Assembly (NCBI GenBank): GCA_028865615.1
Contig: JAGWJT010000001.1
Span: forward strand, 1,601 to 65,600
Length of the DNA stretch: 64,000 nt
Direction of reading: 5' to 3'
From: Patescibacteria group bacterium
Lineage (GTDB): Bacteria > Patescibacteriota > Minisyncoccia > Phycocordibacterales > PALSA-1337
Part shown: piece by piece, positions 2,067 through 64,000 of the stretch
How the letters are laid out: each line of letters opens with the position of its first letter
Position numbering within the stretch: position 1 is the stretch's first letter
The notes under the pieces: model-generated
What the model saw: the letters and a program-made list of their open reading frames with translations, nothing else
The model's database searches: none
Told to the model about the DNA's origin: nothing
Position numbers and translations under genes: made by a program

Positions 2067-3422
2067 ATGCCAACAAATGTCGTCACACGTTTCGCCCCTT
2101 CGCCGACCGGTTATTTCCATGCGGGCTCATATAGGACGGCTCTGTTCTCTTGTATATACGCCCGCCAGAATGGGGGCAAATTCATATTGCGCATAGAAGA
2201 CACGGACAAGGAGCGCTCCAAGAAAGAATACGAGGATAACATCGTAGACAGCCTGCAATGGATAGGCCTCAAATACGATGAATTCTACAGACAATCCGAT
2301 AGGACGGAGCTGTACAGAGAAAGCATCAGGCGTCTCATGGATTCGGGCCATGCATACCTTTCCAAGGAGACACCGACGGATGCAGGAGATAGGCCTGCCG
2401 GCAGGCAAAACAGGGAAGAGGTCATCCGCTTCCGCAACCCGAACAAGAAAGTCGTATTCGACGACATGATCCGTGGCAGGATCGAATTCGACACTACGGA
2501 GCTCGGCGATTTCGTCATAGCCAAAAGCATGGACGAACCCGTGTTCCACCTCGTGGTCGTAGTGGACGACGCGGATATGGGGATAACCCACATCATCCGC
2601 GGCGAGGACCACATCTCGAATACGCCCCGTCAGATCCTTATATTCGAAGCTTTGGGCGTAATGCCGCCGAAATATGCCCATATACCGCTGTTGCTTTCCG
2701 GAGACCGTTCCAAGCTCTCCAAGAGGCATGGTGCGGTGCCTATAACCGAATACCGGAGCAGAGGCTATTTGCCGGAAGCGGTGGTCAATTATTTAGCCTT
2801 GCTCGGCTGGCACCCATCCGATGACAAGGAGATCATGTCTTTCGACGAGATAGTGGGAGCATTCAGTCTGGATCGTGTCCAGAAGTCCGGAGCTATATTC
2901 GACGAGGAGAAGCTCAAATGGTTCAACAAACAGTACTTGAACCGGATGTCAGACGAGCGCTTCACCGAGGCGGCTATGCCATTTGTGCCGGATTGGCTGA
3001 CTACCGGAAGCATGTTGTTCGCCCGTTTGAGTCCCATCATCAAGGAAAAGATAAGCTGCCTGTCGGATATCGCCGGCTTGTTCGCCGGCGGCGGCGAACT
3101 GGCCTTTGTGCACGCGATCGGCCCATACGATCCGTCGATGCTCCTATGGAAGAAAGAGCCCGACAGATCGGCTTCATTGAGACACCTAAATGCGGTCCGA
3201 GACCTGATATCGGGCCTATCCGAAGAAGGATTGACCGCCGACGGTTTGAAGTCCGCCATATGGCCTTATGCCGAAGCCAACGGCCGAGGCAACGTCCTCT
3301 GGCCATTGCGCGTAGCCTTGACCGGCCAAGAAAGATCGCCTGATCCGTTCGTGTGCGCATATATCATAGGCAAGGAAGAATCGCTCAAAAGGATCGATGA
3401 TGCGATCAGTGTATTGGGCTAG
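2067..3422 (+). CDS. gltX: glutamyl-tRNA synthetase
   Basis: 451 aa; class I aaRS with RFAPSPTGYFHAG (HIGH-type) near the N-terminus and KLSKR (KMSKS); GluRS-like throughout. Confidence 0.9.
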   Translation: MPTNVVTRFAPSPTGYFHAGSYRTALFSCIYARQNGGKFILRIEDTDKERSKKEYEDNIVDSLQWIGLKYDEFYRQSDRTELYRESIRRLMDSGHAYLSKETPTDAGDRPAGRQNREEVIRFRNPNKKVVFDDMIRGRIEFDTTELGDFVIAKSMDEPVFHLVVVVDDADMGITHIIRGEDHISNTPRQILIFEALGVMPPKYAHIPLLLSGDRSKLSKRHGAVPITEYRSRGYLPEAVVNYLALLGWHPSDDKEIMSFDEIVGAFSLDRVQKSGAIFDEEKLKWFNKQYLNRMSDERFTEAAMPFVPDWLTTGSMLFARLSPIIKEKISCLSDIAGLFAGGGELAFVHAIGPYDPSMLLWKKEPDRSASLRHLNAVRDLISGLSEEGLTADGLKSAIWPYAEANGRGNVLWPLRVALTGQERSPDPFVCAYIIGKEESLKRIDDAISVLG

Positions 3423-56345: not shown

Positions 56346-56527
56346 GAAGAGAGTATATCATGCACACTTTAATCTACATAAAACAAGGAGAGTTTGGACT
56401 TCGCTTACATTAGCCAGACATCAATATAATTTTGTGTCAACTTGCAAAATCACCACAGCTTGATATCATTCACGCACAACTAGGACCCCGCGACAAATCC
56501 GCCGTATGGGGAAAGATCAGAAATGAT

Positions 56528-57106
56528 CTAACGGGCATCCTGACCATCCGCCGCAAGGCGGATGGTTGCTTTGCAACGACCAGAAATATGTCGATAGAGT
56601 TCACTCGCGGTTCCTGTTGATTTGTTGTGATAGGATCTGACCAACCAAGCCAATGCATCAGCAAGCCTGATCATTGGACAAGATCTGTCGTCAACGGTCT
56701 TTATAGATTTTACCGACAACCCTCTGCACCGCAAAGATCGCTTTATCTGGCTTTCATACCATTTAGGTTTTTTACCATCGATATATACTTTCTCTACATC
56801 AATCTCCGTTATAAGTGTGGCCATAGAATCATACAGCTCCTTTACCGGATCTATGGGATTATCAACTATCCTGTATTTGAACGAGAATTTCAGTTTAGAG
56901 ACCTTGATGATAAATTGTCTGCGAATAGACCAACCTCTGCGCGATCCGAAATCTGCCCAATGAAAATCGCTAATACCGAGACGTCTTTCAATGTCTTGAA
57001 TGCCGCGACTAACTGCCGTCTCATCTCTAACTCCTACATAGACCGCCACAAAACTCGATCTATCAGATCTTTTGTGTATACCTGATTCATCAATGAATAT
57101 ATGCAT
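56528..57106 (-). CDS. DUF3800-family protein
   Basis: 192 aa; N-terminal MHIFIDESG is characteristic of DUF3800. Confidence 0.55.
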   Translation of the reverse strand: MHIFIDESGIHKRSDRSSFVAVYVGVRDETAVSRGIQDIERRLGISDFHWADFGSRRGWSIRRQFIIKVSKLKFSFKYRIVDNPIDPVKELYDSMATLITEIDVEKVYIDGKKPKWYESQIKRSLRCRGLSVKSIKTVDDRSCPMIRLADALAWLVRSYHNKSTGTASELYRHISGRCKATIRLAADGQDAR

Positions 57107-59048: not shown

Positions 59049-59498
59049 TCACACAACTCCTGTCCACCCCAAATCCTTCGCTCTCTTAAATTCCGCAGCA
59101 ATTATTCTGGCTGATTCTTTGAAACCGTTGCCTGCATCCTCTTCGGTCACAATAACTCTGGCTTTGTATGAATCCTTATGCTCGTTCGCGGTCACATCTA
59201 CAGTTATAACAATACCGTTGAATTCAAAGAAGCCGTCCACTCCATGGAATCGATCAAGGGCGCTACCTACAGCCGTATACATTTCTAATTGATCGGGTTC
59301 GATGCCCATAGCTTCGGCAACTGCATCGTGGAATGAGCCCGCTTCTCCAGTTGGATGATGCGGATCATAAGGCTGATTTTCCTTGACTTCTTCTATAGAC
59401 TGATTGAACTTCAAATATCCACGGGCTTTGATCCTGCATTCGCCCAATACTTCAGTCTCCAATATCTTCCCAGTGTATCCTGACGGTGCTTCGTACAT
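59049..59498 (-). CDS. unknown-family protein, paralog B (shares ~50% identity with 59808..60368)
   Basis: Shared blocks EVLGECRI(K/R)ARGY, GEAG(S/H)FH, YTA(V/I)GSALDRFHG(V/I)DGFF, VTVD.T.N.HKD, ARVIVT(E/A)EDA. Confidence 0.6.
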   Translation of the reverse strand: MYEAPSGYTGKILETEVLGECRIKARGYLKFNQSIEEVKENQPYDPHHPTGEAGSFHDAVAEAMGIEPDQLEMYTAVGSALDRFHGVDGFFEFNGIVITVDVTANEHKDSYKARVIVTEEDAGNGFKESARIIAAEFKRAKDLGWTGVV

Positions 59499-59573
59499 AT
59501 CACAAGTATATCATTACCGACACATATCAGACAAAAGTTAAGGCGCCGGGGACAAAATCCCTGGCGCCTTGTT

Positions 59574-59807
59574 TCAATCATCTTCCGACAAACTTTCGAT
59601 CTCAAGCGATACGTCGCCGTCAAATTCAAGCCCCGGCTTGCATAGCAAGCAAAAGTCGCTCTTGAACTTGACGACAGCATTCACCACTAAACCATTTTGG
59701 ATCCGCTCTTCGAGCTTTCTCTTCAGATCCGGCGTGATTACAGCATAGAATGTCGCTTCGTTGACCGGATGCCTGCCACATCTACTGCATTGGAACAGGA
59801 AGTTCAA
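59574..59807 (-). CDS. small zinc-ribbon protein (CxxC ... CxxC)
   Basis: 77 aa; CSRCG near the N-terminus and CLLCKPG downstream; sits between the two paralogs, abutting the paralog A stop. Confidence 0.45.
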   Translation of the reverse strand: MNFLFQCSRCGRHPVNEATFYAVITPDLKRKLEERIQNGLVVNAVVKFKSDFCLLCKPGLEFDGDVSLEIESLSEDD

Positions 59808-60368
59808 TCAGATCACCCCTTTCCAACCGTGGATGCGCGCATGATCGAACCAGCCGGCGATCTCGTGGGCCGCTTGCCCATACTCGCCAAATTGGCTGAA
59901 TGCGTCTTCGGCAGTCACGATCACTCGCGCCCGAGAAACGTCCTTGTGCGGATTCATTGTGGCGTCAACCGTCACAATAGCCCCTTCGAAATAGAAGAAG
60001 CCGTCAATGCCGTGGAAGCGGTCCAGAGCGCTACCGATCGCGGTGTAGAGTTTGAGGCGCGAGGAGTTGAATCCTCGCACTTTCATACTGTCAGCCACCA
60101 CGCCGTGAAAATGCCCTGCTTCGCCCATCGGCTCATACGGACTACCTGGCTGATTGCGGAAGACCGCGCCCAAGGCTGAGCGGAATGATACGTAGCCCCG
60201 AGCGCGGATCCGGCATTCGCCAAGCACTTCGCGTTCGAAGATACGGCCAGTATAGCCGCGCAGTTCCGGATTACGATCACCGCGCCACATTGCGACGATA
60301 TCAAATGCATTCATATTTTTCATAACTGTATTTCCTCCGTAGTTGTAGTTGTTGATGTTTGCCGTCAA
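59808..60368 (-). CDS. unknown-family protein, paralog A (with a ~35 aa N-terminal extension)
   Basis: 186 aa; same conserved blocks as paralog B. Confidence 0.6.
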   Translation of the reverse strand: MTANINNYNYGGNTVMKNMNAFDIVAMWRGDRNPELRGYTGRIFEREVLGECRIRARGYVSFRSALGAVFRNQPGSPYEPMGEAGHFHGVVADSMKVRGFNSSRLKLYTAIGSALDRFHGIDGFFYFEGAIVTVDATMNPHKDVSRARVIVTAEDAFSQFGEYGQAAHEIAGWFDHARIHGWKGVI

Positions 60369-60509
60369 TTATTCCATTGGAAAGAACGCACTCGCGAACT
60401 CTCTAATGTCAATTATACATGAATAATCATACGTTTGTCAAGCCCACACAAAAAGCCCTGCATTTCAGAGCTTTTTGGTTATTATATTTGGAGCGCACCC
60501 GCGAAACTG

Positions 60510-61820
60510 TTATATCTTCGGCCTGTTGAACAATAGATAGACTACCGTGCTGAACAGGATGATGATAACCAGGACCGCTATCCAACCCCAAGGCACGCCT
60601 TCGAGGGAGAAGAAGGCCGCGCCGGTCTGGCTGGTATTCTGGGCGGCCGGCTGGGTAGGCTGAGTCGTGACCCTGACCGGAGCAGCCGTGGTCCTGCCGG
60701 ACGATACCGTCAAGCTGTTGGAACAAGCCTGAGTGCCGGATAGGCCGTCGGCCGAGGTGACCGTGACGATGGCGCTCTTGTTGCCAGAGGTAGAATAGTA
60801 CTTGATGGCTGACTTGTTCGTGCCGGTCAAACCGTCGGTGCCGGTCCATGAATACTTGTACGGAGCCTGGCCGCCGGTGACCTCGACATTCCAGGTGACA
60901 GGCTGATTGACGGTCGAGTTGGAAGGATCAGAGTAACAACCGATCTGCAAGCCGGAATTGTTATTGTTCGAACCGGAAGAGACGACATATGAACCGCCGA
61001 CGTTGACCGTGTTGGAACAGCTCTGGGTAACTGTCTGGCCGTTCGAGTAGATCGTTACGGAAGCTATCTTGGAACCTGGCGTGGTATAAGTGTAGGATAC
61101 GCTCTGGCTATTGCTGTTGCCGTAAGCGCCCAAACCGTCCGAACCTGACCAGCTATAGGTGTAGTAGCCGCTGCCGCCGGTAACATTGGCACTCCATGTG
61201 ACCGTAGTGCCTACAGGGGAAGATGCGGTATTGGGCGCGCAAGACACGGACAAAGCGGGACTGTAGTTGTAATACGTCGGATAATTGTAATAGTACTGCT
61301 GGGCATAAACGTTGACGCCGCTGTTGCAGGAAACATTTGTGGTCTGACTACCGGAAGTGATCATGACTGAGGCGGTCTTGTAACCGGCATTGTAATAAGT
61401 CATATAAGCCGAAGAACCGTAGCCATACAGACCGTCCGTGCCTGACCAAGCATAGGAATATGAACCTGACCCGCCGGAGACGTTGACGACCCACTGGACG
61501 GAAGATCCCGTCTGGACAGAAGAACTGGTCGGATAACAGGAAGCCGTAAGTGCCGGGTAGTTGTATACCGGATAATTGTAGACGATAGGCTGTGTGTAAA
61601 CAGGCTGATAGACAGGCTGATTGACCACTATGGGCTGAGGATTGTATGTCGTCGGAGAATAGTAGTATCCGTGAGTCGGGACATAGCTATGATCATAATC
61701 ATAGCTGCCGTAATAACCGGCATGTGCATAGGCCGGAAATGCTCCCGCCGCCACAGCCATAACCATCACCATGAAGGCGACGCCGAGAAACACGTTGACT
61801 TTGCCGTTGATATTTTTCAT
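60510..61820 (-). CDS. cell-surface protein: signal peptide, Tyr/Gly-rich region, 3 tandem ~95 aa Ig-like/PKD-like repeats, C-terminal TM anchor
   Basis: 436 aa; repeat consensus SC.P...S...G..V.W..NV.GGSG.Y.Y.WSG.DGL; C-terminal GVPWGWIAVLVIIILFSTVVYLLFNRPKI. Confidence 0.7.
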   Translation of the reverse strand: MKNINGKVNVFLGVAFMVMVMAVAAGAFPAYAHAGYYGSYDYDHSYVPTHGYYYSPTTYNPQPIVVNQPVYQPVYTQPIVYNYPVYNYPALTASCYPTSSSVQTGSSVQWVVNVSGGSGSYSYAWSGTDGLYGYGSSAYMTYYNAGYKTASVMITSGSQTTNVSCNSGVNVYAQQYYYNYPTYYNYSPALSVSCAPNTASSPVGTTVTWSANVTGGSGYYTYSWSGSDGLGAYGNSNSQSVSYTYTTPGSKIASVTIYSNGQTVTQSCSNTVNVGGSYVVSSGSNNNNSGLQIGCYSDPSNSTVNQPVTWNVEVTGGQAPYKYSWTGTDGLTGTNKSAIKYYSTSGNKSAIVTVTSADGLSGTQACSNSLTVSSGRTTAAPVRVTTQPTQPAAQNTSQTGAAFFSLEGVPWGWIAVLVIIILFSTVVYLLFNRPKI

Positions 61821-61972
61821 GTTGGTGGCAATCCCGATCTATCGATGCTTTTGCCATATAAATGGCTCAACATAGCGATATTACGGAATCATTGCCGATT
61901 AAAATTCTAACAACTAGTATTGTATCGCAAAACGATACAAAAGTCAAGGGGCTGAACTCTATACTTTGGCTG

Positions 61973-62045
61973 TGCCGAGGACCAGGATCGAACTGGTGAC
62001 CCTTCCCTCTTCAGGGGAATGCTCTACCAACTGAGCTACCTCGGC
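61973..62045 (-). tRNA. tRNA-Phe (anticodon GAA)
   Basis: Reverse complement folds as gccgagg-ta-gctc-agttggta-gagc-a-ttccc-ctGAAga-gggaa-gggtc-accag-ttcgatc-ctggt-cctcggc-a. Confidence 0.85.
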
Positions 62046-62068: not shown

Positions 62069-62368
62069 CTATTGCTGCTGTAAAAGCTGCTTCAGAGACT
62101 GGGCGGCGTTCTGGACTTGCTGCATGTCCGGCAAGGAACCGTTCTGTGACTGACTGCTTCCACCGCCGCTTCCCAAGCTCGTCAGGAAGTCGAAATACGG
62201 CTGGATCAGATAATAGGCGCCGAACGACAGTACGATGATGACGATCCAATATACGACACGCATGATGATGGCCGTTCTGTTCGAGCGTCGCAGGCCTCGG
62301 AGGATCTTGTTGTTCTCCTCTACGCTGGCCGCGGTGCGTTCCAACAGGGCTCTTTCTTCTGGGGTCAT
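62069..62368 (-). CDS. hypothetical single-TM membrane protein (start assigned to MTPEERALLERT)
   Basis: TM segment IIMRVVYWIVIIVLSFGAYYLI; Gln-rich C-terminus. Confidence 0.4.
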   Translation of the reverse strand: MTPEERALLERTAASVEENNKILRGLRRSNRTAIIMRVVYWIVIIVLSFGAYYLIQPYFDFLTSLGSGGGSSQSQNGSLPDMQQVQNAAQSLKQLLQQQ

Positions 62369-62774
62369 CGCCTGAATCCTAGCAGAAAACCCGAAATGCC
62401 GCAAAGGCACTTGCGGCATGTTAAAATAGATCATATGCACGGTATACCGCTCACAAAACAGGAGATTTTGGCTATAACTAGTCTGAGAAAGACCGGACAC
62501 AGCTTGCCAGAGATCATGAAGATTACAAAAAGAGGTAGTTCAGAGGTTGCGTGTCGGGATAAGGATACATGACGATATAGATAAGGACGATGCCATGGCG
62601 TTCTGGTCGTCATTGCTGGACATGGACCGTTCTCGTATAAAGAGCGTGGAGATCATCCACGGCAATAAGACCGGCAAGCTGCGATACGGCATGTGCCGCC
62701 TGCGAGTTGCAAAAAGCGCCAAGTGCTTTAAACTGCTCATGAGCCTCATAGAAGAGGTCAAGAGACGTTTCGAC

Positions 62775-62846
62775 GCTGCCGTAGTTCAACGGATAGAACG
62801 AGGGACTCCTAAGCCCTAGATGGAGGTTCAATTCCTCCCGGTGGCA
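62775..62846 (+). tRNA. tRNA-Arg (anticodon CCT), CCA encoded
   Basis: Manual fold: acceptor gctgccg/cggtggc (two G-U pairs), D-arm gttc-aacggata-gaac, anticodon loop ctCCTaa, T-arm ggagg-ttcaatt-cctcc, then acca. Confidence 0.7.
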
Positions 62847-62865
62847 CCATAAAATCAAGTTGTAG

Positions 62866-63315
62866 TTATTTCAAAAGATAATCTACAACAGCATCACAAT
62901 ATCCACCGAAGTTGTCTTTGTCTGGCACGAAAAAGCCATATCCGTATTCTTTCGAAAGCTTCTCGATTTCTCCGTTCCTAACAATCGCGTTATTGAACCA
63001 TTGCCTTACAGAAGAGTCGTCTCCTCTTTCTTCTTCCATAATTTTTTTATATACCCAATCACCGTTTTCTTTCGAATGCTTGAGTATGTCATCCAGGTAG
63101 GATTGGTCCTTAAAACCGACAAAGGCAGCCCTTATCTCCAAGGTATTAAGAGTTAACTCTTTGACTCTCTCTGGCGTAACAGTCATGCCTTCATCAGTTC
63201 CTTGAAGATAGTGGTTTTGCCAGAACGGGGCGATCCACCTATAAAATATATCTTCTCCATACGGGTTATTATACATCATCGCCACTACCACCATTCCCTG
63301 TCCTTTGGAACTCAT
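62866..63315 (-). CDS. hypothetical protein
   Basis: 149 aa; no recognisable domain; AT-rich. Confidence 0.45.
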
Positions 63316-64000
63316 GGAGAGCGTCGATGATCGGCGCTATCTTCCCCGCCATGATGGCCGGTAGGTTGTGCCAGGACTCCTTGATGCGGTGGTCTGTGAC
63401 GCGGTCTTGAGGGAAATTGTATGTACGGATCTTCTCGGAGCGGTCGCCGGTGCCTATCTGGCCCTTGCGCTCGGCGGCGAACTTCTTCATGTCCTCTTCG
63501 GCTTTGATGACCTCGAGCTTGGCTTGGAGGATGACCATGGCCCGCTCCTTGTTCGCATTCTGGCTGCGCTCGGCGGTAGAACGGATCATGATGCCGGAAG
63601 GCTTGTGGAACAGGCGTACAGCCGTCTCTACTTTGTTGACGTTCTGGCCGCCTTTGCCGCCGGAACGGGAGAATTCTATCTCTATGTCGGCTGGATTGAT
63701 GACTATCTTGGACTTCTTGCGGATGGGCATGATAGCGACCGACGCTGTAGAAGTGTGAATGCGCCCAGATTTTTCAGTCTCCGGCACTCTCTGGACACGA
63801 TGCACTCCGGTCTCCCAGCGCAGATCATCATAAGCCCCCTTTCCCTTCACTTCCATAGACGCTTCCTTGTAACCGCCGAGGTCGTTCTTGGATTCGTCGA
63901 CTATCTTGGTGGACCAGCCTTTTGAAGCGGCATAGGCTCTGTACATGCCTAGAAGCTCGGCCGCGAACAGAGCCGCCTCGTCGCCTCCGGCGCCGGCACG
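63269..64000 (-). CDS. prfA: peptide chain release factor 1 (partial; N-terminus beyond the window end)
   Basis: GGQ motif ([17 protein letters not shown]); RVPETE tripeptide region is the RF1-type PxT; the in-frame upstream [20 protein letters not shown] matches the RF1 core, so the gene continues past 64000. Confidence 0.85.

Follow-up and report, generated by a model that had tools for sequence, protein, structure and literature searches.

What is done by two related small proteins whose genes flank a still smaller zinc-ribbon gene, and which resemble nothing in the curated family libraries? The question is raised by a stretch of 64,000 nucleotides (nt) from a Patescibacteria group bacterium (assembly GCA_028865615.1, contig JAGWJT010000001.1, positions 1,601 to 65,600), hereafter the window, in which three intact minus-strand genes encode paralog A, the zinc-ribbon protein and paralog B. 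Patescibacteria account for a large part of the diversity of bacteria, and for most of the genes specific to their lineages no function has been assigned. We call the family of the two paralogs X, and the small partner ZR. It is near certain that an X gene followed by a ZR gene is a genuine, conserved module; that the pair encodes a two-subunit nucleic-acid enzyme is a far more tentative proposal, and it is weighed below together with its rivals.

The initial annotation, made from the letters of the window, had placed three open reading frames (ORFs) here, and all three were found on the minus strand where it had put them (Table 1). Its estimate of about 50% identity between the two paralogs holds, with BLASTP aligning A and B at 82 of 149 identical positions (55%, E 4e-57), a similarity far above chance, and the blocks that it quoted, EVLGECRI(K/R)ARGY, GEAG(S/H)FH and YTA(V/I)GSALDRFHG(V/I)DGFF, all lie within that alignment. 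The maximal mechanically called ORF for A, of 186 amino acids (aa), opens at TTG 60368. The true start is most likely ATG 60323 (product MKNMNAF...), since GGAGG stands 10 nt ahead of it at 60334-60338 and the A orthologues begin at the equivalent position. ZR is wedged between the paralogs as described, its TTG at 59807 directly adjoining the TGA of A (59808-59810), and it is homologous to the small ORF found 3' of X at most other loci. Paralog B is 100% identical to a hypothetical protein from a metagenome-assembled genome (MAG) of a 'Patescibacteria group bacterium'.

To which family do these proteins belong? To none that has been annotated, as had been suspected: Pfam, NCBIfam, PHROGs and PADLOC give no significant match for any of the three window proteins, the profile searches that the initial annotation had proposed bring up no well-known housekeeping family for the paralogs, PDB sequences searched with X-family profiles yield no relevant match, and not one of 146 X members has a meaningful match in Pfam. 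X and its ZR partner are absent from the curated libraries searched, and a single literature search turned up no specific account of such a family in Patescibacteria. A word-indexed search brought just 7 relatives. Exhaustive profile searching gave 833 representative clusters, defined at 50% identity, at E<=1e-3, with 339 at E<=1e-10 and 27 at E<=1e-30, the homologues nearly always being 135-215 aa long. Every name seen in the source records is 'hypothetical protein', from Patescibacteria-type MAGs, those named being Patescibacteria, Zambryski-, Kaiser-, Adler-, Yanofsky- and Colwellbacteria and Paceibacterota.

The breadth of the distribution was approached with a hand-made degenerate DNA pattern encoding L-D-x2-H-x2-D-x6-G-x3-T-x-D-x-T-x4-K, which recovers 39% of the known X-family proteins. 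It matches 33 stretches in a collection of genomes from 185,579 species, and 73 metagenome stretches, all of the latter confirmed with the family hidden Markov model (HMM); viral contigs scanned with the same pattern, at that sensitivity, gave 0 matches. The titled records among the 33 genome stretches name Kaiser-, Adler-, Yanofsky-, Colwell- and Zambryskibacteria, Paceibacterota and Minisyncoccia as the source, or carry the label 'Saccharibacteria' or just 'bacterium'. With 33 matches at 39% recovery, X would therefore be present in roughly 10^2 species representatives. Its distribution is patchy rather than universal, and on these records the family appears to be confined to Patescibacteria. 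A single match lies outside Patescibacteria-type records, at 2608-3139 on the reverse strand of JBEBJM010000041.1 (locus L041), a 5.6-kb contig labelled as from a Nitrospira sp. MAG; the X encoded there is divergent (E 1e-19) and without a ZR, and the contig could be mis-binned or a true outlier.

How firm is the link between X and ZR? In the first contexts retrieved, an ORF of 69-82 aa with the CxxC...CxxC arrangement followed X every time. Pooling of loci then gave 118 X genes, or 85 clusters at 90% identity, of which 80 have room downstream. An HMM-confirmed ZR lies directly 3' of 54 of these 80, so that the zinc-ribbon co-occurrence whose absence would have told against the initial annotation is amply seen; its start frequently overlaps the X stop by 4 nt. 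A different Cys-rich small ORF takes this place in 4, and the remaining 22 have neither, several such loci having been inspected by eye and found truly to be without ZR. Pairing is not obligatory, since more than a quarter of the X genes (the 22 of 80) have no ZR beside them. Viewed from the other side, no ORF of the window or of any other locus matches the ZR HMM except the one directly 3' of X. In one protein (P0045, 213 aa) X and ZR are apparently fused through a short Gly/Ser-rich linker, by true fusion or by a sequencing frameshift. A further protein, P0140, carries a Cys-rich N-terminal MACRYCGYDMGHAGNCP extension. A sub-group of divergent X proteins (L009/L010, L029 and L082) has the insertion PSDG(I/L)D(K/R)(Q/K)VD..., and has 3' of it a longer Cys-rich small protein without a match to the ZR profile, which may stand in for ZR or be a much-diverged form of it.

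Two C-x2-C knuckles are kept across the homologues of the 77-aa protein, so far as alignment allows this to be judged, and the term zinc ribbon seems apt for its family. All 28 aligned partners keep C7, C53 and C56, and position 10 holds Cys, or His in three (CPEH, CQTH and CKSH, from L013, L037 and L043). Two others (L012 and L020) have C-x3-C spacing. The metal site seems to tolerate variation, because both C-x2-H and C-x3-C variants occur. Like the generic zinc ribbons with which it was compared (Zn_ribbon_8, Zn_ribbon_3, DUF7560 and CpXC of Pfam, and Nop10- or Spt4-like proteins), ZR has two zinc knuckles 40-45 residues apart, but the matches are all sub-threshold (Pfam E 4e-4 to 0.1, PDB E 0.4-9) and none is significant. 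It has a signature of its own, with aromatics, C-x2-C-G-x-Y, an amphipathic helix (TFxxFL) and L-x-F-x3-CP(R)C-x-P, and it differs from the generic ribbons in the occasional C-x2-H of the first knuckle and in being found solely beside X. Net charge is positive in 21 of 29 ZR proteins, with a mean of +4; X proteins are mainly acidic, K/R-rich C-terminal tails being common. Charge complementarity was sought, and the net charges of X and ZR show no correlation (r = -0.03). The proximity of gyrB in several loci raised the idea that ZR is the gyrase inhibitor YacG; it has no support, because YacG is not among the 25 listed Pfam families that match the most ZR members (93 families in all are matched at E<=1).

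The three-gene arrangement to which attention had been drawn is not itself the conserved unit. What is conserved is two genes, X then ZR, and the second paralog is the property of a small lineage: two X genes were found only at the window, at L004 (identical to L066) and at L091, which share the order PKD-repeat protein, A, ZR, B and then the threonyl-tRNA synthetase (ThrRS) gene on the opposite strand. The layout is a lineage-specific duplication of X in three genomes. Identity is 56-68% among A orthologues and 75-83% among B orthologues, and A and B within each genome have diverged by about 45%, so the duplication is older than the three genomes. Both copies are under constraint, with B evolving more slowly than A; the copy without a ZR is consistently the better conserved between genomes, and the ZR-linked copy the less so.

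Nor is the description of the window genes as a three-gene operon borne out, since a G+C-rich hairpin and a second promoter-like site separate ZR from B. The 82-nt intergenic RNA between them has a folding energy of -28.3 kcal/mol (z -3.7 against shuffles), and the hairpin is a candidate terminator for an A-ZR unit; with a T-run of just four bases it was not called by a strict terminator scan. As the promoter-like site ahead of B ends 6 nt short of the ATG, the messenger from which B is translated may be leaderless or nearly so. A-ZR and B are, then, probably two transcription units, with the caution that the promoter-like sites are matches to a consensus and not proof.

What kind of protein is X? 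In the numbering of paralog B, 90% or more of 146 X members have each of G10, E14, Q42, D82, D88, D101, T103, K108 and A113, 82% or more have H85, T99 and G95, and G86, N105 and K112 are also strongly conserved (146-158 members). The pattern suggests a metal-dependent hydrolytic site, of which it is typical. Conserved His and Arg residues had earlier prompted thoughts of an enzyme or nucleic-acid-binding fold; the His, that of LDxxHG, is indeed conserved and the polar residues fit an enzyme, but the Arg, that of DRFHG, is not family-wide. AlphaFold models are confident for both paralogs, with a pLDDT of 88.1 and a pTM of 0.84 for B from an alignment of 8 sequences, and 91.2 and 0.85 for A from one of 126. 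The two are alike, with three N-terminal helices, beta1, a short helix that carries LDxxH, a beta2-beta3 hairpin, a loop, beta4 and a long C-terminal helix. In the models E14 is predicted to be on helix 1, D88 at the start of beta2, T99-x-D101-x-T103 along beta3, and K108 in the loop that follows.

Neither model has a close neighbour in the PDB. In the two lists of the top 60 structural neighbours, the most recurrent single superfamily is PD-(D/E)xK, with about 20 and 14 entries that include I-Ssp6803I, NGO0050, BpuSI, NgoMIV, BsaWI, Bax1, AbaSI and PvuRts1I, and further Hjc, VRR-NUC, AvaII, D212, PaqCI, Cdn1 and HsdR. Set beside the small stand-alone members of that superfamily (archaeal Hjc resolvases, the homing endonuclease I-Ssp6803I, VRR-NUC and the Vsr-like DUF559), X is of similar size, about 120-170 aa. 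Its models also place conserved residues in the elements expected of such an enzyme: the Glu (E14) on an N-terminal helix, an Asp (D88) where beta2 begins and, some 13 residues on, an acidic residue (D101) in beta3, with a conserved Lys nearby. The pattern resembles E...D...(D/E)xK, though with Thr at the +2 position.

The company that the module keeps is of a settled kind. Clustering and Pfam scans of 212 flanking genes from about 82 non-redundant loci found matches to a ThrRS-type class II synthetase (11, with adjacency to ThrRS in 6 loci by clustering), GyrB (7), DnaE (5), SecA (5), PDDEXK_1 (4), UvrD (2), HolB (2) and the rve integrase domain (2), the remaining neighbours being GTPases, MreB, MurA/MurG and similar. 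The neighbours of X-ZR are core housekeeping genes, and no defence family is among the neighbour families listed. The place beside ThrRS is retained in genomes that share just 46-79% identity in that protein, which speaks of long vertical inheritance at one site. Genes of DNA metabolism are about 10% of the neighbours, perhaps twice background by rough estimate.

From these elements a mechanism can be sketched in which we infer that X and ZR bind each other, that activity depends on metal, that the substrate is a nucleic acid and that the chemistry is of the nuclease type. The products of X (alpha/beta, about 140-170 aa) and of ZR (about 70-85 aa) would sit in one complex. X would be its catalytic subunit and supply a divalent-metal-dependent active site, for which E14, D82, H85, D88, D101, T103 and K108 are candidates, on helix 1 and the beta2/beta3 hairpin as in restriction-endonuclease-like, or PD-(D/E)xK, phosphodiesterases. 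ZR, usually basic, would be a nucleic-acid-binding or structural subunit that binds the substrate or stabilises the complex. The cellular role would be the processing or repair of DNA or RNA, chromosomal and vertically inherited, and not defence. Several points weigh against this sketch. No Pfam PD-(D/E)xK family is found for the window proteins, even at hmmscan E<=10, or for the 146 members at E<=0.01; in the models beta3 and beta4 appear to be joined by a loop in place of the helix usual in such folds; and the beta3 motif is D-x-T and not (D/E)-x-K, the conserved K108 being displaced to five residues past T103. X further departs from these nucleases in an extra three-helix N-terminal part with an invariant Q42-P43, in its LDxxHG motif and in usually being paired with a separate zinc-ribbon gene. 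The structural-neighbour lists hold, besides PD-(D/E)xK entries, unrelated alpha/beta sandwiches (LptE, PelC, the TolB N-domain and periplasmic binding proteins), and the restriction-endonuclease-like resemblance is therefore a lead and not a placement. The leaning of neighbours towards DNA metabolism is a weak hint, with a rough background and loci that are not phylogenetically independent, and there are the X genes that do without ZR. As a full mechanistic statement the two-subunit nucleic-acid enzyme is the account that we put first, tentatively, and in the expectation that it is likelier to need amendment somewhere than to stand whole.

X could also be the catalytic subunit of an undescribed enzyme class, of a fold absent from the PDB, with ZR as a dedicated subunit and a function specific to Patescibacteria, possibly a step of nucleic-acid processing or repair that replaces a pathway that reduced genomes lack, the A/B duplication giving a heteromeric variant; this reading we think improbable, without regarding it as far-fetched. 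About as doubtful is the notion that X, again of a new alpha/beta fold, is an enzyme or a ligand-binding protein whose target is something other than nucleic acid, for instance a phosphatase or hydrolase of small molecules, or a regulator that binds metals or nucleotides, with ZR as structural or regulatory partner. The confident models without a close PDB neighbour, and hence an insecure fold assignment, would suit it, the conserved set of acidic residues, His, Thr and Lys would serve many hydrolases, and D-x-T in beta3 is not a nuclease signature; but ZR proteins and the tails of X are basic, the recurrent neighbours lean to DNA metabolism, and genes of small-molecule pathways are not linked to the module.

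Could the pair instead be a weapon and its sheath? The initial annotation had entertained a module related to conflict, and one form of that idea is a toxin-antitoxin pair, or another conflict module, in which X is a toxic enzyme and ZR its translationally coupled neutraliser. Two small genes with a frequent 4-nt overlap, variable genomic positions, a patchy distribution (33 species-representative genomes by a DNA pattern of 39% recovery) and an additional X copy in the genome of the window are all in keeping with it, and zinc-binding antitoxin domains exist, as in MqsA. The comparison with MqsR/MqsA, where the toxin gene precedes that of an antitoxin with a zinc-binding domain, extends to the two small adjacent genes, the downstream C-x2-C...C-x2-C and the start/stop overlap, but stops there: ZR is without a helix-turn-helix or other DNA-binding domain, X does not look like a RelE-like toxin, neither has a family match, the housekeeping context is stable and many X genes lack ZR. 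Pfam, NCBIfam, PHROGs and PADLOC, none of them a dedicated toxin-antitoxin database, offer no match. Core-gene neighbours, with just 2 integrase domains among 212 flanking genes and no defence family among those listed, the lack of any viral contig with the DNA pattern, and the site beside ThrRS kept across deep divergence leave the conflict idea without support. A toxin would hardly be tolerated in the 22 of 80 cases where X has no ZR, the well-conserved paralog B among them; X and ZR are apparently joined in P0045; and the basic ZR with an acidic X is the reverse of the usual toxin-antitoxin charge pattern. We regard this explanation as decidedly unlikely, more so than either of the two in the preceding paragraph. 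That the ORFs are spurious or decaying, and the adjacency of ZR a coincidence, has nothing but the lack of annotation to recommend it and is refuted by the conservation data: there are hundreds of homologues with near-invariant residues, both paralogs are conserved at orthologous loci with 56-83% identity, ZR homologues occur solely beside X, and the AlphaFold models are confident.

The wider surroundings in the window hold genes for DnaE, a methyltransferase, an MFS transporter, a NUDIX protein, DUF3800, ThrRS, the PKD/SprB-repeat surface protein, two tRNAs and release factor 2 (RF2). The tRNA-Phe and tRNA-Arg pair remarked on earlier is confirmed, but the two are not conserved neighbours of X; the surface protein, also remarked on, is a conserved neighbour, but in a close sub-clade only (L004, L035, L040 and L091). 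It has a predicted signal or transmembrane segment, a C-terminal anchor and three internal PKD/SprB-like repeats of the form SC.P......G..V.W...V.GG.G.Y.Y.W.G.DGL. Two ORFs that flank tRNA-Arg have no Pfam match, and the second of them is overlapped by the release-factor gene at the window edge. The latter ORF begins at position 125 of the PCRF profile, and the N-terminal part would therefore lie upstream in another frame or past the end of the window, a layout that would fit programmed +1 frameshifting of prfB. At the 3' end of the DUF3800 gene, on the opposite strand, is a match to the DUF3800-II RNA motif of Rfam.

Table 1. Features of the X-ZR locus and its surroundings in the window (positions count from the first nucleotide of the window).
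Feature	Coordinates	Strand	Remarks
Paralog A (X family)	59808..60323	-	171 aa from ATG 60323; all family-wide conserved residues present
ZR	59574..59807	-	77 aa; Cys at residues 7, 10, 53 and 56 (CSRC...CLLC)
Paralog B (X family)	59049..59498	-	149 aa; without a ZR of its own; all family-wide conserved residues present
Promoter-like site 5' of paralog A	60412..60441	-	TTGACA, 18-nt spacer, TATAAT; 12 of 12 sigma-70 consensus positions
G+C-rich hairpin between ZR stop and paralog B (candidate terminator)	59540..59570	-	followed by a U-tract broken by a single C (AACUUUUGU)
Weaker promoter-like site 5' of paralog B	59505..59534	-	TTGTCT, 18-nt spacer, TG-TATACT (extended TG); 9 of 12 consensus positions
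PKD-repeat protein	60510-61820	-	436 aa
tRNA-Phe	61972-62045	-	
ORF	62069-62500	-	143 aa
tRNA-Arg	62775-62849	+	
ORF	62866-63315	-	149 aa
Release-factor gene	63269-63946	-	RF-1 and PCRF domains
DUF3800-II RNA motif (RF02961)	56476-56545	+	54.4 bits against a gathering score of 43.2; E 2.8e-9
DUF3800 gene	56528-57106	-	

X-ZR is one of the many 'dark matter' families of Patescibacteria, now with a defined anatomy and as yet with no indication of a surprising function. It is tractable for biochemistry and structural work, the proteins being small, the clusters numbering in the hundreds, the predicted fold confident, the candidate active site defined and the zinc ribbon dedicated. If the fold of X is truly new, an enzyme family would be added; if X proves to be nuclease-like, residing as it does among genes for replication and translation, it could show a step by which reduced genomes maintain their DNA or RNA.

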